Of a stretch of DNA of 64,000 bases, positions 6,166 through 61,423 are shown piece after piece. Numbering within the stretch: the first letter of the stretch is position 1; the number at the start of each line of letters is the position of its first letter. The notes beneath the pieces were generated by a model. The model worked only from the letters and a program-made list of their open reading frames with translations, did no database searches and had not been told where the DNA came from. The stretch comes from a virus. The position numbers and the translations under genes were made by a program. The stretch lies in IMG/VR virus record IMGVR_UViG_3300050498_000493; one strand, given 5' to 3'.

Positions 6166-6702
6166 ATGGCGCCCCCGCTCACGCAGCTCTCGCCCGAGCA
6201 GCTCACGCTCGTCGCCATTGCCGAGCTCAAGCCGCATCCCCGCAACGACGGCAGCCATCCCCCGGCCGAACTCGATCACCTCAAAGCCTCGATTACCCAG
6301 CACGGCATTTACCGCAACGTCGTCCTCGCGCAGGACGGGACCCTGCTCGCCGGGCATGGCGTGGTCGAAGCCGCCCGGGCGTTGGGCCAGACGCATGTGC
6401 CCGGCTACCGCCTGCCGTATGCGCCCGATGACCCAGCGGCGTTGGCGCTACTCGTGGGGGACAACCACATTGCGCGGCTGCGCGAGCAAGACGACCGTCT
6501 GCTGGCGGCGCTGCTGCAGGACCTCGCAACCGACGATCCGCTCGCGCTGCTCGGGACGGGGTATGATGCAGACTCGCTGGCGGCGTTGGTACAGCAGGGT
6601 CAGGTCCCGGACTTTCAGCCCGTGGGGATTGACGAGCAAGGACGTCTCGATGAGAAGCAGCCACTGGAGTGCCCCGCGTGTGGGCATACGTGGGTACCAT
6701 GA
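6166..6702 (+). CDS. ParB/Srx N-terminal domain protein with C-terminal CPxCG ribbon
   Basis: LKPHPRN...SITQHG...LLAGHG...GDN; ECPACGHTW. Confidence 0.85.
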   Translation: MAPPLTQLSPEQLTLVAIAELKPHPRNDGSHPPAELDHLKASITQHGIYRNVVLAQDGTLLAGHGVVEAARALGQTHVPGYRLPYAPDDPAALALLVGDNHIARLREQDDRLLAALLQDLATDDPLALLGTGYDADSLAALVQQGQVPDFQPVGIDEQGRLDEKQPLECPACGHTWVP

Positions 6703-7409
6703 GCGACAAGCCCGTCCTCAAGCTGGACTGGTGTAGTTATGCCGCCGCCAAGTATGCGGTCGAGCATTGGCACTATAGTCAGAGTCTCCCGCCTTTCCCG
6801 CTGGTCACTATTGGCGTGTGGGAAAATGCTCGTTTTGTTGGCGCGGTGGTGTTTGGCCGAGGGGTGAACAAGAATCTCTGTAAAGCATATCAACGTGCTA
6901 TGACCGAAATTTGTGAATTGACCCGTGTCGCTTTGACGACGCATGCCTCGGCCACGAGTAAAATTATCCGTATTGCCGTGCGGTTGTTAGCACGTGCCAA
7001 TCCCGGTTTGCGGCTTATCGTGTCGTATGCTGACCCGAACCATGGGCATCATGGCGGTATCTATCAAGCATTAGGCTGGATTTTCGATGGGCAGACTCAG
7101 GCAGATTTTGTGGCGATTGACCGGGCTGGGCGCCGCTGGCATTCCCGTCAAGTAAGTGCGTCCGGCCATAAACGGAAATTTGGGAAGGTGTGTCGTGTGC
7201 CAAAGGTGAGTGAGTGTCGTGTCGTGTCCCTCTCTGGGAAGTATCGCTATCTCTGCCCGCTCGATGCGGCCGTGCGTGCCCAGATCGCCTCGCGTGCGCA
7301 ACCGTATCCCAAACGCGCCACAAGCATCGTAGCTGATGCGGCTCCCGTCCAGGGAGAAGAGGGCGGTGCGACTCCGACCGTGGCGCTTTCCGGCGCAGAG
7401 GTGTCATAA
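6699..7409 (+). CDS. mom: Mom-like adenine-modifying GNAT enzyme
   Basis: HWHYS...ELTRVAL...IVSYADPNHGHHGGIYQALGW...KYRY; ATGA overlap with ParB gene. Confidence 0.8.
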   Translation: MSDKPVLKLDWCSYAAAKYAVEHWHYSQSLPPFPLVTIGVWENARFVGAVVFGRGVNKNLCKAYQRAMTEICELTRVALTTHASATSKIIRIAVRLLARANPGLRLIVSYADPNHGHHGGIYQALGWIFDGQTQADFVAIDRAGRRWHSRQVSASGHKRKFGKVCRVPKVSECRVVSLSGKYRYLCPLDAAVRAQIASRAQPYPKRATSIVADAAPVQGEEGGATPTVALSGAEVS

Positions 7410-7429: not shown

Positions 7430-7849
7430 ATGGCGAATAAGCATCGTTACTCAGCGACCGAGGTGGCGCAAGCGCTCATCGACACCAAGGGCATGGTCTA
7501 TATTGCGGCGCAACGGCTGGGGTGTACCGTGGAGACGATTCGCCTGTACTGCAAGCGCTATCCGTCCGTCCAGGCTGCTCGTGACGCCCAGCGGGGGATC
7601 ATGGTCGATACCGCCGAGCTGAAACTGTGGCAGTCCATCCAGAACGGCGAGCCCTGGGGCATTGCCTTTGCCCTGAAGACCATCGGCAAGGATCGCGGCT
7701 ATGTCGAGCGCCACGAACAGACCGGCGAGAACGGCCAGGGCATGGTGTTGCGCGTCGTCTATGAGAATCCGCCTGAGCCACTCCCAGAGCCGCCGCGAGC
7801 CTTGCCGCCACCTCTCATTGATGGTCTCCAGAATGGATATCCCTCGTGA
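7430..7849 (+). CDS. terS: Terminase small subunit (HTH)
   Basis: N-terminal HTH (AAQRLGCTVETI); AIAFALKT-like/GKDRGYVER; directly upstream of TerL. Confidence 0.75.
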   Translation: MANKHRYSATEVAQALIDTKGMVYIAAQRLGCTVETIRLYCKRYPSVQAARDAQRGIMVDTAELKLWQSIQNGEPWGIAFALKTIGKDRGYVERHEQTGENGQGMVLRVVYENPPEPLPEPPRALPPPLIDGLQNGYPS

Positions 7850-9168
7850 GTACGCGTGACGTGGCTCCTGCAAGGGCTCTTGCGCCGCGCGAATGCGTGA
7901 TCAAACTCAAGCGGCCCCATGCGCAGCAACTGCAGTTCTTGCGCCATCCAGCGCCGCGCAAACTCATCCGCGCCGGGAGACGATCGGGCAAAACGACGGG
8001 GATCGCCATTTTGGCCGTCGAGCAGTTTCTCTTAGGCAAGCGCGTCCTGTATGCTGTCCCGACCGCTGATCAACTCATGAAGTTCTGGTTTGAAATCAGC
8101 CAGGCGCTGGCGGAGCCGATTGATGCGGGCATGTACAAAAAAAATGAGACGTTGCATACGATTGAACGCCCGGGCACGGAACAACGGATTCGTGCAAAAA
8201 CGGCCTGGAACAGCGATACGTTACGCGGGGACTTCTGTGACCTGTTGATTATCGATGAATTTCAACTCTGCTCCGAAGACGCCTTCTCCTTGGTGGGGTT
8301 GCCCATGTTGCTCGATCGGAACGGGCGCTGTGTGCTGATCTACACGCCCCCGTCGTTGCGCGCGGCGGGAGCGACGAAGGCGCAGGACCCCCGTCACGCG
8401 GCCAAACTGTTTAAGGCGGCGGCGGCCGATACCAGTGGCCGGTGGATGACGTTCCATTTCAGTTCGCATGCCAACCCGTTCATTTCGACCCAGGCGTTGA
8501 CGGATATCACCATGGATATGTCCAGCCTCGCCTATCGTCAGGAGATTGAAGCCGAAGACATTGACGAGGTGCCAGGCGCCTTGTGGACGCAGGCGCTGCT
8601 CGACCAGACGCGGATCACGAGCAATCAACTCCCGGCGCTGACGCGCGTGGCGATCGCCCTCGATCCTGCGGGTACCTCGCAAGAGACGAGTGACGAGATG
8701 GGCATTGTCGCCGGGGGACGGGATGCGCAGGGCCATGGCTATACGCTCCGCGATGCTTCCCGACGCGGGACGCCGGCGGCCTGTGCACGCCAGGCGATTC
8801 TGCTCTACGATCAACTTGAAGCCGATGTGCTCATTGGGGAAGCCAACAATGGTGGCGAGTGGATCGGCACGGTTATTGCCTTTGTGGCGCAAGAGATGTA
8901 CCGTCAAGGGGCACGGCCCACGGCGTCCGTCAACTACAAGATGGTGCATGCGAGCCGCAGTAAACAGACGCGGGCGGAGCCGGTGAGCACTGAGTATGAA
9001 CACGGGAGGATTTCGCACGTGGGCGTCTTTCCCGCGCTGGAAGAGGAAATGTGCTCGTGGGTCCCAGGCATGCCGTCGCCCTCTCGCATGGACGCGGCGG
9101 TCTGGTGTTTTACCGAGTTACTGCTCAATCAGCCTAAGCCCCTGCGGCTGATGGAGATGCATATATGA
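7846..9168 (+). CDS. terL: Terminase large subunit
   Basis: Walker A AGRRSGKT, Walker B LIIDE, nuclease IALDPA...D...DAAVW. Confidence 0.95.
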   Translation: MSTRDVAPARALAPRECVIKLKRPHAQQLQFLRHPAPRKLIRAGRRSGKTTGIAILAVEQFLLGKRVLYAVPTADQLMKFWFEISQALAEPIDAGMYKKNETLHTIERPGTEQRIRAKTAWNSDTLRGDFCDLLIIDEFQLCSEDAFSLVGLPMLLDRNGRCVLIYTPPSLRAAGATKAQDPRHAAKLFKAAAADTSGRWMTFHFSSHANPFISTQALTDITMDMSSLAYRQEIEAEDIDEVPGALWTQALLDQTRITSNQLPALTRVAIALDPAGTSQETSDEMGIVAGGRDAQGHGYTLRDASRRGTPAACARQAILLYDQLEADVLIGEANNGGEWIGTVIAFVAQEMYRQGARPTASVNYKMVHASRSKQTRAEPVSTEYEHGRISHVGVFPALEEEMCSWVPGMPSPSRMDAAVWCFTELLLNQPKPLRLMEMHI

Positions 9169-10715
9169 GCGTGACCCTGCCCCATCCCGCCTATACCGCT
9201 ATGCTGCCCTTGTGGGGGATGCTGCGCGATGCCTACTTGGGCGAAGCCGCGGTGAAGTCGGCCCGGCCCATGAGCCTCTCGCAACGCAGTACGCGCGCCG
9301 CCCTCGACGGCACGGCCTATCTGCCCCGGCCAGCGGGAATGAGGCGTGATGAGCAGTACGCCGCCTACCGGGATCGCCCGGCCTGGACGAGTGCGACCGA
9401 ACATGCCGTCCATGGCATTACCGGCTCGGTCTTCCGGCATGAGCCGCAACTCATTGGCCCTGATGCTCTAGAGCCCCAACTCGCCGACATCACGCAGACC
9501 GGCATATCGCTGCGCATGTTCTGCGAAGAGGCCGTCCGCGAGACGCTGCTTATGGGACGCTTTGGGATCCTGGTCGATTTTCCCACTGGGGACGTGACGC
9601 CCGACGGCCAGCTGCTCCCCCCGCCGCCGCAGAGTCGCCCCTACTGGGTAGCATACCGGGCCGAGGAGATCATCAACTGGCGGACCATGCAACGCGGTGG
9701 GGATACGATTCTCTCGTTGGTCGTTCTCAGAGAATGCGTGCAGGTCCCGCAAGGCCCCTGGGGGACGCCCGACTTCTTTGTGGTCAAAGATCAGATTCAG
9801 TACCGGGTCTTGCGCTTGAATGAAGTGGGGCTCTACGAGGTGAGTTTGTGGCTCGAAGACCCCGTCGGCCAGCGGACCAACGCGCAGGCGGCGACCCTCC
9901 AGCGCGTCTGGATGCCCATGCGCCAGGGGCAACCGCTCGATTACCTGCCGTTCTGCTTCATGGCGCCGTTCTCGCTAGAGCCGACCCCGGAGAAGTCGCT
10001 GCTCGAAGGCCTCGTCCGCCGCAATTTCCTCAACTGGCGGCATAGCGCCGACTACGAGCATGCGCTGCACCTTACGGCCATGCCCCAATTCTACATTGCC
10101 GCCAACATGGAAGCGCCTCCGGAGCTCTATGTGGGGGCCAGCTCGGCGCTGTTCCTGCCCGACAATCAAGCCAAGGTGGGCATTGTCGAGTTTCACGGCC
10201 AGGGCCTCCAGCCCCATGAGAACGCGCTCAAAGCCGATTTGCAGATGATGGCGGCGATGGGGGCCCGGCTGCTCGAAGGCCCCCCGGACACGCAGGAGAC
10301 GGCGACCGGGGTGCAGTGGCGTATGGCGGGGAGCGATAGTCCCGTGCAGAGCTTAGTCAGCAGCGTCAGCCAGGGCTTGACGTGGGCACTCCAGGTCCAC
10401 AACTGGTGGTCCGGGTTTAGTGAGAACAGTGATGAGCCGACCGTGCATGTGAGCCTCAATAAAGATCTGGTCTCGAATACGATGCAGCCCCAGATGTTGA
10501 CGGCACTCATGGCGGCACTCTTAAGCGGAACTATCAGCTACGAGACTTTTTATCATAATCTCCAAAAGGGTGAGATTGCGAGGCCGCTGGTGCCCGTCGA
10601 GGAGGAGCAAGCCCTGATTGAGGATGAGCAGGCACAACGGCCGCTCGTGGCGTTGCCGCCAGGACCAGGCACGGTTCCGCCAGGGCGCAATGGCACGGCA
10701 CGCACCACGGCGTAG
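9165..10715 (+). CDS. Portal protein (DUF4055-like)
   Basis: Position after TerL; YLPRP...Y..YRDR, GRFGILVDFP, INWR, ETAT motifs. Confidence 0.9.
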   Translation: MSVTLPHPAYTAMLPLWGMLRDAYLGEAAVKSARPMSLSQRSTRAALDGTAYLPRPAGMRRDEQYAAYRDRPAWTSATEHAVHGITGSVFRHEPQLIGPDALEPQLADITQTGISLRMFCEEAVRETLLMGRFGILVDFPTGDVTPDGQLLPPPPQSRPYWVAYRAEEIINWRTMQRGGDTILSLVVLRECVQVPQGPWGTPDFFVVKDQIQYRVLRLNEVGLYEVSLWLEDPVGQRTNAQAATLQRVWMPMRQGQPLDYLPFCFMAPFSLEPTPEKSLLEGLVRRNFLNWRHSADYEHALHLTAMPQFYIAANMEAPPELYVGASSALFLPDNQAKVGIVEFHGQGLQPHENALKADLQMMAAMGARLLEGPPDTQETATGVQWRMAGSDSPVQSLVSSVSQGLTWALQVHNWWSGFSENSDEPTVHVSLNKDLVSNTMQPQMLTALMAALLSGTISYETFYHNLQKGEIARPLVPVEEEQALIEDEQAQRPLVALPPGPGTVPPGRNGTARTTA

Positions 10716-10953
10716 GCGGGAGCAACGGTACTTTGCAGATCTAAGAAAGAAGAGAAGATCTCGGAGAAAACCTCGATAAATCCCCTCCCCCCTCCCACCG
10801 CTGCAAGCGTAGAGGCAAACTGCCGGTTTTTGCAAGAGGGCAAAAGCAACCGCAGCGAGGGTGGGAGGCTGAGGGAGAGGGCGTCAGGACCAGGAACGCT
10901 GCCACCGGGGCGCAATGGCGCGACGTGGCAGGTGGCCTAGGAGAGGGGCTGAC

Positions 10954-11967
10954 ATGGAAGAGACACGCTTTCAAGAACTCCAACGCCGCTTGCCGTGCCA
11001 GATGCAGGCCATGCAGGGGCAGACAATATGGACCATAGAGAGCCGTTGTTTGCAGCGCTTTCTGGGGTCACATAAAGATGCTACAGACTGGGCAAAACAA
11101 CAAATAGAGCGCACTAAGCTAATTGAAAATACAGATGTTATAGTTTTCCCCCTTAAGGGGGAAAACCCCAAGGGTGGTCGTCCACGCATGGAGTATTATT
11201 TTACTTTCAACGCGGCTAAGAAGATTTGCATGATGGCCGAGACCGACAAAGGGGATGAAGTTCGCGAGTATTTTTTGGAGTGTGAGCGCCGTGCCCATGC
11301 CTTTGCTACTCCACCCCATACTCCTAGTACGTTCTATGAATGGTTAAGCATGGTAGAAAGCCTGGGCAAAGTCTTGCATGGGGAAATTCAGATTGTTCGT
11401 ACCGACGTTGGCCTCCTGCAAAACACGGTTGAATCGCTTGCCGATGAAGTACAGAGCCATAGCTTTGATCTTCATGCGCTTCGCCAGCATCAACAACGCC
11501 AGGAGCAGCAGCTTGGTGAAACCCTGTCTCATGTGGAACACCAGCAACAACAGTTAGGGCATGTACAGCAGCAGCTTGACGATGTCCTGCAACACTGGGA
11601 GCTTCGTGAGTCGCAGTATCAGGCTACCCAGCGTTCCTCCTCGTCGTATGCTTCGCGTACGGAACAGGAGCCACCAATCGGCTGGCAAACACTCCCGCGT
11701 TACGTGGCAAAGGTCCGTCCTGACGGTGTGCCCTTGTATCCGGGAAAGAAGATTCCCCAAGCGCTCCATGACTGTGTGAAACGGTATTGCATGCCGCATA
11801 AATTCACACTATTTGGTCATGAGTATGCGAGCAATTTTTATAGCCCCGAGGCGCTGAGAAAGGGTTGTGAAGACTATACTCATCGGCAAAAGCTCGCGCC
11901 GAAATTGCCCAAGAACTATGATCCCCGTCAGCGGGATTTTACCTTGGATGATCCACGGAAGTCATGA
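10954..11967 (+). CDS. AntA/AntB-type antirepressor
   Basis: L..FLG...DW..QQI...GGRPRMEYYFTFNAAKKICMMAETDKGDEVREYFLECE, then coiled coil. Confidence 0.85.
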   Translation: MEETRFQELQRRLPCQMQAMQGQTIWTIESRCLQRFLGSHKDATDWAKQQIERTKLIENTDVIVFPLKGENPKGGRPRMEYYFTFNAAKKICMMAETDKGDEVREYFLECERRAHAFATPPHTPSTFYEWLSMVESLGKVLHGEIQIVRTDVGLLQNTVESLADEVQSHSFDLHALRQHQQRQEQQLGETLSHVEHQQQQLGHVQQQLDDVLQHWELRESQYQATQRSSSSYASRTEQEPPIGWQTLPRYVAKVRPDGVPLYPGKKIPQALHDCVKRYCMPHKFTLFGHEYASNFYSPEALRKGCEDYTHRQKLAPKLPKNYDPRQRDFTLDDPRKS

Positions 11968-11997
11968 ACGTGTATTATCTAGCAGGAGGGCCGTTGT

Positions 11998-12195
11998 ATG
12001 CCACTGCGAAAGGCTCCAAAGGGAGCGAGTAAGAAGACCCGTTCCAAAATTTCGTCCGCCAACATACGGGAAATGCATCGTTCGAGTCGATTTAAAAAAG
12101 TCGCCCGCAAGTTTGGCAAAGCCCGGGCCAATCGCATGGCGGTGGCGGCGGGGCTCTCGGCCATGCGCGGCGGGCGCAAACGTAAAAGGAAGTAA
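11998..12195 (+). CDS. Small basic phage head-region protein
   Basis: AGGAGG RBS; MPLRK...ISSANIREM...AVAAGLS; very Lys/Arg-rich. Confidence 0.65.
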   Translation: MPLRKAPKGASKKTRSKISSANIREMHRSSRFKKVARKFGKARANRMAVAAGLSAMRGGRKRKRK

Positions 12196-12393
12196 GGGTA
12201 TGGCAACGACGAATTTTGCCACGCTCCAGGAGGAAATACAGGCGCGCATGCAGCAAGAAGACCGTGCCTATGCGTTGCAGCGGCTCCTCATCACGTTTCG
12301 TCCCCGGGCGGGAGCGCCCCGGTCCTATCGTCAACTCCTGGTGGATGTCCAGGAATGTGTGGCTGAAGAACTCCAAACGTTAGGAGACGAGTA

Positions 12394-12840
12394 GTGGAAC
12401 CGTACGATCCGATGATGGAGGCGCTGGTCGATGCGATGCTGCAAGCCCTCGACGCGGGCGCGGATATGGCGCAAGGCTACGTGGATAAGCTCCGCCAGCT
12501 CGTGGTGAGTCTCCAGCAGATGCTGGCCGACCCCGAGGGCCATGGGCTCATGGCGGCGAAGCCCCCTGGCACGGGGGACGCGTCGCAGGCAGAGACGGAA
12601 CAGGTCATGCGCCAGGCGCTGGGGCATCTCGATGCCAAGGCGGGCGATGTGGAGTTGGAGTATCTCCAGGTACTCCAGCGGCTCCAAGGAGCCATTGAGA
12701 AAGAGTTGTTTAAGTGGGCCAGTAGCCTTGTCCAGCCAGCGGGGTTTAGTGGCGAAATTCAAATCCCGGTCGGTGGCGGCGAATGGGAGCGGCATGAGGA
12801 AGCCCTCCCGCAGACGAGCCGCCTGCGGCTCACGGTGTAG
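12394..12840 (+). CDS. Hypothetical protein
   Basis: AGGAGA RBS, coding-like composition. Confidence 0.5.
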   Translation: MEPYDPMMEALVDAMLQALDAGADMAQGYVDKLRQLVVSLQQMLADPEGHGLMAAKPPGTGDASQAETEQVMRQALGHLDAKAGDVELEYLQVLQRLQGAIEKELFKWASSLVQPAGFSGEIQIPVGGGEWERHEEALPQTSRLRLTV

Positions 12841-12999
12841 GCCATGCGGACGCTCTGGGGGATTCGCCATGTGCGGTACTCTTGGCATCTCTACCAGCTG
12901 GCCCGTTGGCATGCCCTCTGGTCCGCGTACGGGTATAGCGTCCCCGCGCCCAGCGACGTGGATCATCTCGCCGCCATCTGGGCGGGGAGAGCCTAGCGC

Positions 13000-13194
13000 A
13001 TGGCAGACGCGCTGGCGCCCTGCCCGTTTTGTGGCAGTGTCGTGATTGAGGGGTGGGAGAGCACTGTGGGCGGCACGTATGCGACGGCGGTGTGTCGGGA
13101 TTGCCATGCCTGCGGGCCAGAAGGCCGCAGCATCGAGGAGGCGACTACGGCGTGGAATAGGCGCCCGCGCGCAGAGGAGGTGACGGATGCGTGA
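13000..13194 (+). CDS. Lar-family restriction alleviation protein
   Basis: LAPCPFCG...VCRDCHACGP...EEATTAWNRR. Confidence 0.75.
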   Translation: MADALAPCPFCGSVVIEGWESTVGGTYATAVCRDCHACGPEGRSIEEATTAWNRRPRAEEVTDA

Positions 13195-13383
13195 GGATCG
13201 TGCCCAGCAGCGGCGGGTGTTTGAAGAGACGATCGCCCGCGTGATGGCCGAGTACGCCCCCGCTGAGGATGTCCTGGTGGATGCGAAGGCCCTTGACGAG
13301 CGGGGACAATCGGTGGTCGTGGCGCGCTATAAGCTTCACGTCGATGGACGGATCGAGTGTTTCGAAGTGCTGGACGAGGTGCT

Positions 13384-14427
13384 ATGGCCGAGCCCGTAAA
13401 CGCGCAAATTGCCGACGCCTTTACCGCGCGTCTCCTCCAGGTGGGCCGGGCCGAGACCCGCGAGCGCCAGGAGGTCTGGGCGTTGTTGCTGCTCCTCGAA
13501 GCCGATCTGCTCAGTGCGCTCCGGGAAGCCGATCCGGCGCAGTTTTCCTTTCTCGTGGCGCGGCGGCGGGCGGTACAGTTTCTGCTCCGGGATGAGATCG
13601 ACCCGCTCGTGACCACGCGGTACGCCCAGATCGCCCGCGACGTGGATGGCTTTCTCGTGGCCCTGGCGGAGCAGGAGGCCCGCGTCACCCGGCGTATTGT
13701 GAATACCGAGACCGAGGCACAGACGGTGGACGAGATGCCCAGCGAGACGGCTGTGCGGCGTGCCGTGCGGCAGACGCTGATTCCCAGCCCGGCCACGCCC
13801 ACGGACTTGAGCGCCCCCGGGGACGAATGGTGGACCCGTGCGGCTGCTGGGCTCGTGACGCGCCTTGGCGATTCGCTCATGGTCGGGGTGAGCCTGGAAG
13901 AACCCACGCCGGCGCTTGTGGCACGGGTGCATGGAACCGCCGCTAACGGGTTTCAGGACGGGATTATGGCGAAGGCGAAAGAGGATGCGGCACGTTTGCT
14001 GCGGACGCAGACGACCAATGCGGTGAGTGAGGCGCGGGTTGCAACAGCAATGGTTAATAGTGATTCGGTTCAAATTGAACATCATTCGATTCTTGATTCG
14101 CGCACGTCACAAGTCTGCCTGGCGCGCAATGGCCTGCGCTATACGGCTGATGCCGATCATACGCCGGTGGGCCATAGCATTCCTTATCTTGCAGGCGTGC
14201 CGTACCATATCGCCTGACGTTCGAGCTTTATCCCGGTGGTGCCGGGGGGCGGACGGGTGCCAAACGACAGCGTGAGTAGCTGGCTCTCTCGCCGCGATAC
14301 GGCCTTTCAGGATGCCCTGTTGGGGCCAACGCGGGCGCGCATGTTCCGATCGGGTGCCCTGACGCCGAAACACTTGATCGAGGCGGCCACGGGGAAGCCG
14401 CTCACGTTAGAGGAGCTCGGGGCATGA
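13384..14427 (+). CDS. MuF/SPP1 gp7-like head morphogenesis protein with in-frame TGA at 14215-14217 (candidate Sec/readthrough; 347 aa if read through)
   Basis: SILDSRTSQVC; VPYHIA-TGA-RSSFIPV matches PxHxxCRS; same frame continues WL...LGPTRARMFRSG.L...GKPLTLEEL, the usual family C-terminus. Confidence 0.85.
14218..14255 (+). promoter_or_regulatory. Candidate bacterial SECIS hairpin
   Basis: CGTTCG/CGGACG lower stem; CCCGGT/GCCGGG upper stem; GGT apical loop 20 nt after UGA. Confidence 0.55.
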
Positions 14428-22347: not shown

Positions 22348-23542
22348 ATGGCCCTGACAATAGTCGAAGCGTCCAAGCTGAATTCGGGCGATGTTGCAAG
22401 GACCGCAATCGTGGAGATGTACGCGAGAAACAGTGACATATTGCGCGTGCTTCCGTTTGAAGGCATTGCTGGGAACGCCCTGAAATATAACCGTGAAGAT
22501 ATCTTACCTGGTGTTGGCTTTCGTGGGGTTAATTTGGCCCCCTTAGCGGCGTAAGCGCTATAGGACAACCGCGTGAATTGCTGGAACCTCTCTCTGAGAC
22601 AATCAGCAGCCAAGCCGCCGAGGAAACTCGCGGAAGGTTCAACGACTAGGGTAGGGAGCCTACAGCCTCAAGGCCATGGCGGTAAAACCCCACGAGCGCG
22701 CGGCATCCCTTTGGGATGAAGAGATAGTCTGACCTGCATGGCGACATGCAGAAGCATCGGATAAAGAGCCGGTGCGATAACAGCAGTGCAACGAAGGCTT
22801 TACCGAATCGGTTGGGGTTTTGAATCCTATTACTGAAAGTCTCGTTATTGCGGGAGGAGACCTGGACGTAGATAGGTTTATAACCCAGACCATGGGGGCT
22901 AACCAACGCAGTGTGCAGGAGGGGTTGAAGGTCAAGGCCCTGGCCCACCGCTGGACCCTCGCCTTCATAAAAGGTGACAGTAGTGCCGATCCCCGCGAGT
23001 TTGATGGGCTCCAACGCCGTATCCCGCCTGGGAGCTCGCAACTGCTCGATGCCGGGGCCACGTCGGGTGGGGATGCGCTGTCGCTGTTCAAGCTCGATAC
23101 GCTGATTAGCAAGGTGGACGACGCCAATTTTCTCATCATGAACAATACCATGGCTCTTAGGCTGGCGCAGGCGGCACGGAATACCGCTGTCGGAGGTTTT
23201 ATCACGTGGAATCCGTCGGAGTTTGGCCAGCGCATCATGTCGTACAACGGTATTCCGATCCTGATCGCGCGTGAGGATAATCTGGGGAATGACATCCTCC
23301 CGTTTACTGAGGCGAATCCGGGCGGCGGTGCTGCGGCCAGTACCTCTATTTATGCGGTGCAGATGGGCGATGGGGGTCTAGTAGGAATACAGAATCAAGA
23401 TATAAGCGTAAGAGACCTAGGCGAACTTGAAGCAAAGCCTGTTTTTCGTACCCGCGTGGAGTGGTATGCAAGTGTGGCCGTCTTCTCCGGGCGCAGTATG
23501 GCTAGGCTTCGCGGGATTAAGGATAGCGCAATCGTAGTATGA
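22348..23542 (+). CDS. Major capsid protein, spliced join(22348..22529,22789..23542), 311 aa
   Basis: Exon 1 MALTIVEASKL...LPFEGIAGNALKYNRE..LPGVGFRG joins in frame to VNEGFTES...GGDLDVDRFI...EFDGL...RTRVEWY...ARLRGI. Confidence 0.92.
22530..22788 (+). ncRNA. Group I self-splicing intron, 259 nt, no ORF
   Basis: P GAATTGCTGGAA, Q AATCAGCAGC, R GTTCAACGACTA, S AAGAGATAGTCT; exon ends in U pairing with IGS GCCCC (GGGGU); terminal G22788; splicing restores frame. Confidence 0.93.
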
Positions 23543-56959: not shown

Positions 56960-57771
56960 CGCTGCTCCTGGCGCTGCTGGGCAGCACACCGAGCCTCGCA
57001 CAACCCCAGGTGGACCGGAGCGCGCCCTTTGCGCAAGGACTCCTGGCCTGGTGGGTGGCGGTGCCCGGCCTCACGGGTGGGCGGTTCCTCTATGACCTCA
57101 TGGGCCGCACCCACGCCACGCTCGTCAACATGGCGACGGCGGGCACCTCGGGATGGGCGGCGCCGACCCGCGCCGGGGATGCCGGGGAGATTCGCTTTGA
57201 TGGCACCAATGATTATGTGGATATTCCCAGTACAGGGTATTTGTTTCCCCCCGCCTTTACCCTGACGGCCTGGGTGAAACGGACGGCCATCGGGGTGGCC
57301 TATCAAAACGTGTTTACGCATACCAGTGGCGATGTGCGGGTCTTTCAAATGAAAAGTGATGGCCGGATTGCCACGGCGCTTTTGACGACGGGGACAACCT
57401 TTTCCCATGATGGTGGTGCCATCGCGCTGGCCGTGGGCACCTGGTACTTTGTGGCCTTTAGCTACAGTAGCACGAGCGGCTTTGAGGTCTCGGTCAACGG
57501 GGTGCAAGACACCTTTGACGCGCCCAATGGCACCGCCTTTGCTATTACCCAAGCCCAACGGTGGGGGGCGAACATGGCAGGATCGGCCGATTTCTTCCCT
57601 GGCGCGATGAACGACATTCGCCTCTACAACAAGGCCCTCTCCCTGAGTCAGCTCCGCGCCATGATGCAGGACAATACGCGCAGCCCCCTGGTCACGCGGA
57701 GTCTCCCCGTGGGCGTGGTCGAGGCGCTCGTGCAACAGAAACAGCGGTTCTTCCCTTTTTTTGGTCCATAA
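56929..57771 (+). CDS. Signal-peptide LamG protein, paralog of 33572-34450
   Basis: ALALLLALLGSTPSLA-Q; GLLAWW...GG...DL.GR; GAMNDIRLYNKALS. Confidence 0.8.
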   Translation: MHAVHFASALALLLALLGSTPSLAQPQVDRSAPFAQGLLAWWVAVPGLTGGRFLYDLMGRTHATLVNMATAGTSGWAAPTRAGDAGEIRFDGTNDYVDIPSTGYLFPPAFTLTAWVKRTAIGVAYQNVFTHTSGDVRVFQMKSDGRIATALLTTGTTFSHDGGAIALAVGTWYFVAFSYSSTSGFEVSVNGVQDTFDAPNGTAFAITQAQRWGANMAGSADFFPGAMNDIRLYNKALSLSQLRAMMQDNTRSPLVTRSLPVGVVEALVQQKQRFFPFFGP

Positions 57772-57790
57772 GGTATGCAGGGGGTTTCCC

Positions 57791-60700
57791 ATGCGGTCAT
57801 TAGTATGGTTGGTCGTCCTCCTCGGTCTCCTTGTCTGTACGCCCCGTGCGGACGCTGCAGAATATTTCACGGATAAAGACAGCATCGGTGGGGGCTGTAG
57901 TGATTCGAACCCGGGCACGCGCACGCAGCCCGTGTGTACGATTGATGCGGGCATTCGCAAACTCGCCGGCGGCGACACCCTCTGGATTCGGGCGGGCGAC
58001 TATGCCGAGGACATCTGGCCGTCCAATGACAACCGCTTTGGGCATGCCTGGGTGCCCGCAGGCACCAGTGAGAGTAATCGCACGATCATTTCCGGCTACG
58101 GCAACGAGCGCCCCCAGATACGCCGCGTCAACTTTGACTTTAACCAGAGTCCTCCCTCATCGCAGACGAGTTGGTTTACCCTTCGGCAAATCTATATTGA
58201 TGGCACGCGGCTTGGTCCCAAGGGGGGGGGCCAGCCCAACTGTGCCGACATCATGCATGGGCACCACAACCGCCTCCAAAACGTCTGGTTGATCGACTGT
58301 CCGTCCATGTGTACGCGGATCGAAGGGGAGTACCAGGACATTCTGGATTCACGCCTGGAGGGGTCCTTTTGGTACGGGACGTATTATTCGGGCAGTCATG
58401 GGAGGATCGACAACAATGTTTTTGCCAATAATGGCGGCTATGGCGTCCATATGTACCTGCTGGGGCAAGCCTGCCCGAGTTCAGATTGTGTCCATGACAA
58501 CGTCGTCTCCAATAATCGGGTCTACGGCAACGGGCGTGGTCCTGATGCCGCGCAAGGGGCCGGGGGCCTCCTCATCTCGCGCGGCGCCAACCATGTGGCC
58601 TACAATAATCTCGTCTACAACAATGCGTTTGGGCTCTCGATGGACCATCAGTGTGTCAACTGTGCTTTCTATAATAATACGAGTTATGGCAATGACGGCT
58701 ATGGCCTCCAGGTGTCCACCGTCACCAACGGCGGCGCCATCGTTCGCAATAATATTGTGGTTGGCAACGGCAATGACATTAGCATTGGCAATACCAGCCT
58801 CGTGGCCTCCTATAGCAATAATCTCTGTGGCGCTGGTGGCGGGTATACCTGTACCCACTCTGGCGATCCGCAGTTTACCAATGCCGGTGGGGGCGATTTT
58901 TCCTTGCAAGGGGGGAGTGCAGCCCGCAATCAAGGGGCCACAATCTCGATGGTCACGACGGGCTACAGTGGCCCTCCGGCGTTTGCGCCCATTAGCCGTC
59001 CCCAAGGCCCGGCCTATGATATCGGCGCCTATGAGTACCAGGAAGGCACCCAGCCCTTTGATTTTCAGGTCCAGTACCCTGGCGTCCAAACGATTGCGCA
59101 GGGCGGCACGCGGAGTTTTTCGGCCTCCGCAACGGTGGTCAGTGGAACACCCGTGCCTGTCACGTTTAGTGTGACCAGCCTGCCGAGCGGGGTCAGTGTC
59201 TCCAGTATTACGAACTCGCCCTGCACCCCAGGGTGTAGCGCGACCGTGACGCTACAAGCTCTGGCCGGCGCTACCCCGGGCGACTATAGCCCAACACTCA
59301 GCGCGGCGAATGGCAGTCAGGTGCGGAATTCCCCAGGCTGGACCCTCTCGGTCACCGGCACGGGAGGGAGTTTTGATTACTCGGTGAGCGATCCTGGAGA
59401 CCGGACGGTCCTCCAAGGGCAAAGTATCCAGGTGCCCGTGACGATTACCACGCTCACAGGAACCCCGGCTGCTGTGACCTTGAGTGTCACCTCCACCCTA
59501 CCCTCGGGCGTCAGTGCCAGCTGGGCCGGCACGCCCTGTACCCCGTCGCCCAATTGTACGAGTACCCTCACGCTCACGGCGACGCCGAGTGCGCCCGTCA
59601 CCCCGTCCCCGGTCACCGTGACCCTGCATGGGGCGGCGGGTGCGCTCACCCATGACCGGACGTTTCCCCTCACCGTGGCCGCGCAAGCCCCGCCGCAGGT
59701 GGGCGGCAATCCGATCTATGTGCGGTGTGCGTCAGCCAGTGGGGGGACAAGCAATGATAGCTTTAGTTGTACCGAAGCCGAAGACCCCGCCAAGGCCAAG
59801 CGCACCTTGAGTAATGCCCTCACCGAATGTATGAACACGATCCCCGGCAAAATCCTCTATCTCGAAGGCAATGGCTGTACGTACGTGGAAGAAATCGATA
59901 CGCTCGCGCGCCCCATGCTGGGCGGCAATGGCCCCAGCATGACCACCAATACGCGCCTGGAGGGGTACGGGAGCCCCGTCCCCATTATTCAGTCGCCCAA
60001 CCCTGGGGGCGCGCTCCTCTATCTCCACAACAACGACCATTATTTGACGTTCAAACGGCTGGTCTTCGACGGCGCCAATCACACCTTTAACCTGGGGGTG
60101 TTTCTGGCAGGCACCCACCACGTCCGCCTCGAAGAAGTGGAGCTCAAAAATAGTCTCAGTGGGGGCTTTGAAGGACTCTACATTGAAAATAGCGCCAACA
60201 TTGAACTGATCAACACCTTTGTCCATCACACCGGCAGCCACGGGATCACGGTGGACAACGGCATGGATACCTTGCTGTGTAGTGGGTGCCATATTTTTAA
60301 CGCGACCGGCAAGGGGTTGAACGTCACCAATGCCGGGACGAAGACGAACATCACCATCGAGCAGACGGAAGTCCGCAACAATGGGGGGGACGGGATCGAT
60401 CTCAATGGCGGGACCGGCACGCTGCTGCAAAATCTCTTGGTGCATTCCAACGGGGGTCGCGGGGTGTGGGTCCACGGGGGCGCGAGTGAGACACGGACGT
60501 TGAACAGCACCGTCTACGGCAATACCGGGGTCGGGCTCCAGTGTGATACGGGTGCCACGAGCACGCACGTCCGCAATACCATCGCGTACGGCAATACCGG
60601 GGGCAATATCCTCAACAATTGCGGGGCCACCGTCGCCAAAAACCTCTGTGCCGCGCTCTCGGCGGAGTGTGCGGTGTTTGGTGATCCACTCTTCGTCGCG

Positions 60701-60907
60701 GCGCCGGGCGATCTCCACCTGGGCAATGGCTCACCGGGCATCAATGCGGGCGAACTCATCTCCAGTATCACGGTGGATTACGACGGCAATCCGCGCCAAC
60801 AAGATACCCAAGATATTGGGGCCTATGAACGCACGCAGGCGGCGCCCGTCGGCCCCGACGTCACGGTGCGCCAGCGAGACCTCGCCCGGGTAGGGTGGTA
60901 TTTCTGA
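57791..60907 (+). CDS. Secreted protein with two parallel beta-helix domains and two Ig-like repeats
   Basis: MRSLVWLVVLLGLLVCTPRADA-A; NN..YGN/GG.G repeats; DIGAYE twice. Confidence 0.85.
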   Translation: MRSLVWLVVLLGLLVCTPRADAAEYFTDKDSIGGGCSDSNPGTRTQPVCTIDAGIRKLAGGDTLWIRAGDYAEDIWPSNDNRFGHAWVPAGTSESNRTIISGYGNERPQIRRVNFDFNQSPPSSQTSWFTLRQIYIDGTRLGPKGGGQPNCADIMHGHHNRLQNVWLIDCPSMCTRIEGEYQDILDSRLEGSFWYGTYYSGSHGRIDNNVFANNGGYGVHMYLLGQACPSSDCVHDNVVSNNRVYGNGRGPDAAQGAGGLLISRGANHVAYNNLVYNNAFGLSMDHQCVNCAFYNNTSYGNDGYGLQVSTVTNGGAIVRNNIVVGNGNDISIGNTSLVASYSNNLCGAGGGYTCTHSGDPQFTNAGGGDFSLQGGSAARNQGATISMVTTGYSGPPAFAPISRPQGPAYDIGAYEYQEGTQPFDFQVQYPGVQTIAQGGTRSFSASATVVSGTPVPVTFSVTSLPSGVSVSSITNSPCTPGCSATVTLQALAGATPGDYSPTLSAANGSQVRNSPGWTLSVTGTGGSFDYSVSDPGDRTVLQGQSIQVPVTITTLTGTPAAVTLSVTSTLPSGVSASWAGTPCTPSPNCTSTLTLTATPSAPVTPSPVTVTLHGAAGALTHDRTFPLTVAAQAPPQVGGNPIYVRCASASGGTSNDSFSCTEAEDPAKAKRTLSNALTECMNTIPGKILYLEGNGCTYVEEIDTLARPMLGGNGPSMTTNTRLEGYGSPVPIIQSPNPGGALLYLHNNDHYLTFKRLVFDGANHTFNLGVFLAGTHHVRLEEVELKNSLSGGFEGLYIENSANIELINTFVHHTGSHGITVDNGMDTLLCSGCHIFNATGKGLNVTNAGTKTNITIEQTEVRNNGGDGIDLNGGTGTLLQNLLVHSNGGRGVWVHGGASETRTLNSTVYGNTGVGLQCDTGATSTHVRNTIAYGNTGGNILNNCGATVAKNLCAALSAECAVFGDPLFVAAPGDLHLGNGSPGINAGELISSITVDYDGNPRQQDTQDIGAYERTQAAPVGPDVTVRQRDLARVGWYF

Positions 60908-60919
60908 CGGGGGGATGGC

Positions 60920-61423
60920 ATGGCCGACGATATTCAGGTGCAGAGCCAGGGCGGCGGCGGCAATGGGTTCTCGGTGGACTTGAAGCAGCGCAGCCTGGGG
61001 ATTACCGGCCCCATCGTCATCCCCGTCATTTGTCTCCTCTTGCTGGGCGTGCTGGGGTGGATACGCTCGAAAGATCTCAATGAGCATTTAAAGGCGCTCG
61101 GGGCGCGGCAAGAGCAAATCCGCACGGAACTCCGCGAGCAAAATGCGCTGGCGGCGGCGCAGACGGAAGCCCTGCGGGGCGAGTTGCGCGACCAAAACGC
61201 CCTCGTGCATGCCCAAAGCGAGGAATTTCGCAATGAGTTTCGCGCACAGAACCGCACCATGGCGGAGCAGGCCGTCACCGCGCAGCAGGCCTTAGCGGCG
61301 CAGATGCAAGGCGTGGCCGAGCGCCTCAGTATTCTCTCGTATAATTTGGACAAACCCCCGGGGGAACGCTTACCCCTGGATGTCTCGCCGAGTCATATCC
61401 CCCAGCCCGAGCGTTCGCGCTAG
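60920..61423 (+). CDS. Membrane-anchored coiled-coil protein (holin/spanin-like, tentative)
   Basis: One TM helix followed by repeated coiled coil. Confidence 0.5.
   Translation: MADDIQVQSQGGGGNGFSVDLKQRSLGITGPIVIPVICLLLLGVLGWIRSKDLNEHLKALGARQEQIRTELREQNALAAAQTEALRGELRDQNALVHAQSEEFRNEFRAQNRTMAEQAVTAQQALAAQMQGVAERLSILSYNLDKPPGERLPLDVSPSHIPQPERSR

Follow-up and report, generated by a model that had tools for sequence, protein, structure and literature searches.

The DNA analysed here comes from an uncultured soil phage. It is a stretch of 64,000 nucleotides, referred to below as the window, and is phage DNA throughout: it carries genes for Mom, large terminase, portal, tail terminator, tape measure, GpJ-like and tail fibre proteins, and a Pfam scan of 78 ORFs revealed no cellular genes. 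Downstream of the genes for the large terminase (7846-9168) and the portal protein (DUF4055; 9165..10715, plus strand) lies the gene for a MuF/SPP1-gp7-like head morphogenesis protein, which occupies positions 13384..14427 of the plus strand and comprises 347 codons, including one in-frame UGA. From the ATG at 13384, the frame reads ...V-P-Y-H-I-A-[TGA]-R-S-S-F-I-P-V..., the TGA at 14215..14217 (plus strand) being the predicted selenocysteine (Sec) codon for residue 278, at a column where the homologues have an invariant Cys. The same frame then continues for 69 further sense codons (14218..14424, plus strand), which encode the conserved C-terminal part of MuF in the read-through frame, and ends at the final TGA (14425-14427), which shares bases with the start codon of the following ORF (ATGA). 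At its N-terminus (MAEPVN), the protein aligns with the first residues of the homologues. That the MuF ORF stops at a TGA in the Cys column while the frame stays open for 69 more codons typical of the family had been noticed in an earlier, sequence-only reading of this DNA, and both the translation and the profile searches confirmed it.

In the profile searches, the read-through protein (P0001) was used with C standing in for U. The phrog_241 profile ('head morphogenesis') matched residues 1-345 with an E-value of 1.4e-54, and Pfam PF04233 (Phage_Mu_F) matched residues 161-282 at 29.6 bits, a borderline hit, as the gathering score is also 29.6. Since the profile matches cover both sides of the TGA, the homology spans it. 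With NCBIfam TIGR01641 (phageSPP1_gp7), the read-through form scored 38.6 bits, i.e., one bit below the cut-off of 39.65, and the 277-residue form scored 28.0 bits, its match ending at profile position 87 of 109; only the read-through form reached the end of the profile. Because the TIGR01641 cut-off was missed, we file the protein under the MuF superfamily and not under TIGR01641. The core of the superfamily, LDxRT...C...HxxC-R-S, is present in the window protein with U replacing the last Cys. One further profile, phrog_14819 (91 positions, unknown function), matched only the tail of P0001 (residues 295-345, window 14266-14418, E 1.5e-6); perhaps this family is made up of orphan ORFs that were annotated behind in-frame TGAs of this kind in the genomes of other phages.

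The surroundings of the gene show some features of their own. Just upstream of the terminase gene, a Mom-family protein (PF25680, E 1.4e-41), likely involved in DNA modification, is encoded at 6669-7406 on the plus strand. The gap between the portal and MuF genes is about 2.7 kb in the window (10715-13384) vs. about 1.4 kb in the related contig G001, and the ORF with an AntA domain at 10915-11964, for which G001 offers no equivalent, has probably been inserted as an accessory or mobile gene. The major head protein gene is interrupted by a group I intron (Rfam RF00028, 87 bits) at 22520-22751 of the plus strand; in the syntenic G001, about 250 nt are absent exactly at the intron site and the phrog_212 major head protein is intact, with 311 residues. 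In the region 57761-61423 (plus strand), a 1048-codon ORF for a beta-helix tail protein stops at the TGA at 60905 and is followed, without a change of frame, by an ORF at 60920-61420, an arrangement that may be due to chance (1 in 3).

As for the use of TGA in general, 26 of the 79 greedily chosen window ORFs, a set that includes some spurious ones, end in this triplet, as does the MuF gene itself, and TGA is the gene's own real terminator in most members of the family. TGA is thus the normal terminator here and has not been generally reassigned, in agreement with the earlier view that the genome is not recoded as a whole. A crude list of the window contained 49 other TGA read-through candidates, mostly off-frame noise in G+C-rich DNA.

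To follow the codon at the Cys column across relatives, we used both protein and nucleotide data. A protein search yielded 88 clusters, 23 of which end exactly before the Cys column and 61 of which are full-length with Cys, the other four being frameshifted, intein-bearing and distant forms. No residue other than Cys was found at the column in the 61 full-length clusters. At the nucleotide level, the codon was read at 60 places, namely in the window and at 59 loci of viral and metagenome collections where a script found the motif once. There were 22 TGA, 26 TGT and 12 TGC codons, and neither TAA nor TAG. Two loci with a second, chance match to the motif, L002 and L069, were set aside; both have a Cys codon at the column (TGC in L002). 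The frame after the TGA is open for 68-70 codons at 21 of the 22 TGA loci, matching the length of the Cys forms, and at the remaining one (L092) it runs off the contig. The viral and metagenome collections overlap, and after deduplication 30 distinct 105-nt segments remained (TGA in 13, Cys in 17), excluding L051 and L053 (distant), L096 (intein-bearing), L097 (disrupted upstream) and L092 (too short). Thus, the independent Cys/TGA pairs to be expected of a selenoprotein gene occur in many relatives, with 22 TGA vs. 38 TGY at the column.

The TGA of the window was also recovered elsewhere. Throughout the gene, TGA included, the window is matched without a difference by L065, an independent metagenome contig; L001, L012 and L066, which are about 90% identical to the window, keep it as well; and Logan contigs from four rhizosphere runs, one of which is possibly the window's own sample and all of which possibly belong to one campaign, cover 14215-14217 with 0 differences. 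Farther away, TGA recurs in lineages that are 47-91% identical. The sequence-only reading had considered that reads or close relatives with TGC or TGT might expose the TGA as an error or a one-off mutation; what these sources contain is TGA. In three of the runs, a 44-nt Logan unitig (window 14197-14240) that includes the TGA and the 5′ half of the hairpin described below was covered two to three times as deeply as the sequence on either side, which suggests that this stretch is common to co-occurring strains.

A second MuF subfamily of 77 loci gave a different picture. Among the 72 loci read by script, TGC was found in 62, TGT in 9, GAC in one and TGA in none; the five read by eye comprised two with Cys, one with an intein at the site, one that was too short, and L178, where a stop lies just after the His and the frame is broken. 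No clear TGA form was seen among these 77 loci, and on this sample the use of Sec looks lineage-restricted.

We then asked how the codons on the far side of the UGA evolve. In Sec-Sec pairs with estimable dS, the dN/dS ratio (Nei-Gojobori) for the 69 codons after the column was 0.09-0.27, similar to that of the N-terminal part in the same pairs (0.10-0.18) and also to that of Cys-Cys pairs. For the window and L001, which both carry TGA and fall within an all-Sec clade with a support of 100/100, the downstream values were dN 0.062, dS 0.66 and dN/dS 0.09. Immediately after the UGA, Arg-Ser is found in all 13 TGA forms, encoded by CGU, CGC, CGG or AGA and by UCG, AGU, AGC or UCU; the preservation of this dipeptide through synonymous changes argues against a downstream restart. 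The purifying selection on the downstream codons clearly indicates that coding continues past the UGA, as had been supposed. Taken together, these comparisons allow us to conclude that the in-frame UGA is real, recurrent and translated, the translation being seen as selection on the downstream frame. The state of the column has also switched repeatedly: on an IQ-TREE phylogeny of 25 unique complete genes (11 Sec and 14 Cys), built without incomplete genes and without L077, for which no start codon was found, the label requires 7 changes, and well-supported branches force at least 4 of these.

The mRNA just 3′ of the UGA may fold into a SECIS-like hairpin at 14231..14247 (plus strand), in which the 5′ arm UCCCGGU (14231-14237) and the 3′ arm GCCGGGG (14241-14247) enclose the loop GGU (14238-14240), at a distance of 20 nt from the UGA. 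This hairpin is both the MFE and the centroid structure of the local 25-nt fold (-10.5 kcal/mol) and is the RNAalifold consensus of the window clade; the same hairpin is found in L001/L012 and in L008/L026. The hairpin had originally been drawn with two stems. The upper one, with its GGU loop 20 nt downstream, was retained in the consensus, whereas the lower stem CGUUCG/CGGACG, complementary as it is in the window, was absent both from the MFE structure and from the consensus with the closest Sec relatives and is not supported. Taken alone, the window hairpin is no better than chance: in this DNA of 61% G+C, the 71-nt stretch gave a z-score of +0.50, with 138 of 200 shuffles folding as well, and the 25-nt stretch gave -0.54, with 57 of 200 shuffles as good. 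Its significance comes only from the comparison with relatives.

In this comparison, the two kinds of genes differed. A perfect stem of 6 bp or more, with a loop that begins +24 to +27 nt from the U, was present in 11 of 13 TGA forms vs. 6 of 17 Cys forms (Fisher p 0.010; this and the other group tests treat the sequences as unrelated, i.e., kinship is ignored). In the 11 TGA forms, the stems are 6-7 bp long and the loops are GGU (5), UGGA (3), UGGU, UGGG and UGUGC; the weaker TGA cases are L085 (5 bp, loop CGUGCU) and L015 (4+4 bp, loop GGC). By hand count, a G stands at loop position 1 or 2 in 13/13 TGA vs. 10/17 Cys forms. When six TGA sequences were placed in one register, 97.6% of the cells were paired and 3 of the 7 pairs showed compensatory double changes; 7 of 500 shuffles were as good, and slid registers gave 36-74% pairing. 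The same columns in 11 Cys sequences were 64.9% paired, no better than with a slide of +3 (67.5%). This covariation sample is small, with 6 TGA and 11 Cys sequences and kinship ignored. RNAalifold recovered the same helices unguided. In addition, local 25-nt folds had z-scores below 0 in 12 of 12 TGA forms (mean -1.56), and the mean for the first 8 in the list of the 17 Cys forms was +0.02.

The choice of codons within the window clade illustrates the same difference. The peptide PVVPGGG is present in both kinds of genes; the Sec forms encode it as CCG GUG GUG CCG GGR, thereby forming 6-7 bp, and the Cys forms L002 and L003 encode it by synonymous codons that leave 4 bp. Against synonymous-codon shuffles, individual sequences gave P values of 0.04-0.94, weak single-sequence values being due to the peptides PVVPGGG and TVLEDGG themselves, which favour pairing. 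Hairpins also occur in some Cys forms (L087, L005, L019 and L093), and no Rfam family matches the hairpin. According to published rules, the apical loop of bacterial SECIS elements lies 16-37 nt from the UGA (PMC10778597) and has a G at position 1 or 2, and Cys relatives sometimes keep hairpins (PMC13582414). The predicted hairpin geometry of the TGA forms fits these rules. The covarying hairpin that was looked for in the homologues has thus been found, since it recurs at the same distance in the TGA forms, shows compensatory changes and is largely absent from the Cys forms.

The residue encoded by the UGA would belong to a highly conserved site. C245, H275 and C278 are invariant in 59 full-length homologues; of 38 distant relatives, 37 keep them, and the remaining one, L058, has an intein-like insert at exactly that point. 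H233 is not kept. The AlphaFold2 model (pLDDT 90.6) comprises a small beta/alpha domain after a long helical bundle and places C245 in a short helix (243-248) and H275/U278 in a loop before the strand 281-285. Folded separately, the C-domain reached a pLDDT of 77.4. A PDB relative was not found by sequence, and Foldseek returned nothing at E ≤ 0.001 for either the whole model or the C-domain model. With VIA-align, residues 15-229 matched only generic helical bundles (top Z 10.5) and the C-domain only small beta-barrel rows (Z ≤ 3.5). None of these searches yielded an informative solved relative. In MuF homologues, the two sites of highest conservation both harbour inteins or intein-like inserts: one site immediately precedes the Cys/Sec column (L058, RHFN/AIAKGE..., and L172, AHFN/CLLGNT...) and the other lies between LDSxT and S (P0064 and L096, ~1900-2000); the L058 insert is at ~776, and P0087 is among the proteins with such an insert. 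The presence of inteins at both sites underlines the Cys/Sec and LDSxT sites as the functional core.

Insertion of Sec is usually low-yield. Since MuF is needed in few copies, a low yield would be tolerable in this case. The function of the MuF domain, which is found in more than half of siphoviruses, is described as unknown; SPP1 gp7 is portal-bound and present in 1-2 copies per capsid (PMC5576092), and MuF has been regarded as a virion anchor for injected effectors (PMC5512222).

No components of a Sec system were found on the phage side. The window and G001 contain no tRNA genes; a tRNA-Sec search gave nothing at E ≤ 1 in the window, G001 and G002; and sel genes were found neither among the 78 window ORFs (Pfam) nor in G001 or G002. 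The phage would therefore depend wholly on the machinery of its host. With regard to the host itself, profile searches of genome contigs with the family alignment and with P0032 gave no match, the nearest cultured phages are ≤33% identical, and the related 'provirus' contig G001 bears only phage genes up to both of its ends. No RNA dataset with the window sequence is listed among the sequencing runs.

The best explanation of these data, and in our opinion a likely one, is that the UGA at 14215-14217 is decoded as selenocysteine via the SECIS-like hairpin. The hairpin 20 nt downstream is predicted to recruit the SelB/tRNA-Sec machinery of the host, which would decode the UGA, and the product would be a full-length MuF head protein of 347 residues with Sec replacing the invariant Cys of the C...HxxC site. 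We infer that the inserted residue is Sec, that the hairpin is bound by SelB and that the hosts possess selA/B/C/D. The selenocysteine reading proposed from the sequence alone has thereby gained support from the Cys/TGA pairs, from the selection, from the hairpin and from the relatives that keep TGA. This MuF family is a probable new phage selenoprotein family.

Other explanations of the UGA have been weighed against this one. It might be read through without Sec, with a near-cognate or suppressor tRNA inserting Trp, Cys or Arg at a low level, perhaps stimulated by the hairpin. The selection on the downstream codons would be accounted for in this way too, as it shows that the UGA is translated but not into which residue. 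Of the 12 distinct TGA forms, 9 have C and 3 have A directly after the UGA, and UGA followed by C or A is a weak termination context in E. coli; in addition, the few copies of MuF that are needed (PMC5576092) could be supplied by inefficient read-through. However, the stop is confined to the invariant Cys column in 22 of 22 cases and never appears at another codon, Trp and Arg occur in no homologue whereas Cys occupies the column in 61/61 full-length clusters, no tRNA gene was found in the window or G001, and the place of the hairpin and its G-containing loop fit the SECIS rules. We therefore regard read-through without Sec as rather unlikely. In programmed read-through of the Q-beta A1 type, which yields two products, the part before the stop is already a complete, functional protein and the extension contributes a further module; here, one compact domain is predicted, with the UGA within its HxxC motif, and this candidate was rejected.

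The location of the UGA inside the conserved HxxC motif, and not at a domain border, also speaks against a split or truncated gene, in which the 277-residue product would end at the UGA and the tail would be re-initiated separately or be dispensable. Such an arrangement would agree with gene callers, which annotate 277-residue proteins in 23 of the 88 clusters, with the GTG ORF of 63 codons that starts at 14236, and with the phrog_14819 profile confined to the tail. On the other hand, the Arg-Ser codons lie upstream of any restart and are nevertheless conserved synonymously in all 13 TGA forms, neither the frame nor the length of the tail varies, and TIGR01641 is matched to its end by the read-through form alone. 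Altogether, a split gene appears quite improbable. In a tblastn search of cultured phages with the 69-residue tail, the matches listed were all unsplit MuF genes. The least probable reading, with next to no chance of being correct, is that the TGA arose by faulty sequencing or assembly, or by a recent nonsense mutation in a phage undergoing decay. Although a single base change is enough to turn TGY into TGA, this reading is refuted by the independent contig L065 and the contigs of the four runs, by the recurrence of TGA in diverged lineages and by the selection: a dS of 0.66 together with a downstream dN/dS of 0.09 between two TGA-bearing relatives excludes decay.

If the UGA does encode Sec, the MuF gene resembles the bacterial genes with a SECIS element inside the ORF, of which E. 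coli fdhF is the prototype. As in those genes, the in-frame UGA is aligned with a Cys of the homologues, and a hairpin lies just 3′ of it within the ORF, with 20-23 nt from the UGA to the loop and a G at loop position 1 or 2; a GGU loop at about 23-26 nt from the U resembles the mini-SECIS of fdhF. In contrast to them, the MuF gene is phage-encoded and specifies a morphogenesis protein without a known redox role, the binding of SelB is a prediction, and there are two hairpin solutions, with GGU and UGGN loops, within one family. The families found in the metagenomic selenoproteomes of the Sargasso Sea and GOS (PMC1088965, PMC2398784) share with MuF the TGA/Cys pairs, the conservation on both sides and the small G-containing apical loop, but they are cellular enzymes, mostly thiol oxidoreductase-like, and the word 'phage' is absent from the main text of the two papers. 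Judged at the sequence level by the criteria of these surveys (PMC1088965, PMC2398784), this MuF family is a selenoprotein family with Cys homologues. Repeated Sec/Cys switching, enrichment of the loop G in Sec forms and hairpins in some Cys relatives are also described for Group 4 [NiFe] hydrogenases, where, however, Sec is a known metal ligand in a cellular enzyme and the sel genes are in the same genome (PMC13582414).

Among head proteins, SPP1 gp7 and Mu gpF have in common with the window protein the MuF domain (PF04233), a gene near those for terminase and portal, and the C...HxxC-R-S core; they differ in having Cys at the site, and the passages of PMC5576092 and PMC5512222 that deal with them describe no Sec form. 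Selenoproteins of eukaryotic viruses reportedly include glutathione peroxidase homologues of poxviruses. There, too, a virus borrows the Sec machinery of its host, but the SECIS is of the eukaryotic type and the protein, rather than being a structural or virion component of a bacterial virus, is an antioxidant enzyme acquired from the host. Our full-text literature searches found no report of a phage selenoprotein, only papers on eukaryotic viruses and on engineering.

The identification of Sec at this site would mean that there is a bacteriophage-encoded selenoprotein family, whose members are virion or morphogenesis proteins rather than metabolic oxidoreductases. Gene callers for phages would be truncating such genes systematically, as illustrated by the 23 of 88 clusters annotated as 277-residue proteins, and phage propagation could depend on the Sec trait of the host and on selenium. 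The C...HxxC site of MuF would then probably be chemically active, which would provide a concrete handle for experiments on MuF. Particle assembly might, as suggested earlier from the sequence alone, also be coupled to the selenium or redox state of the host. In a broader and decidedly tentative view, soil phages may build Sec into the Cys-His-Cys site of MuF, such that their infectious particles depend on the Sec machinery of the host and on the supply of selenium; Sec/Cys switching might then track the Sec capability of the hosts and act as a hidden determinant of host range, and the role of the MuF core might go beyond structure, as a redox, nucleophilic or metal centre.
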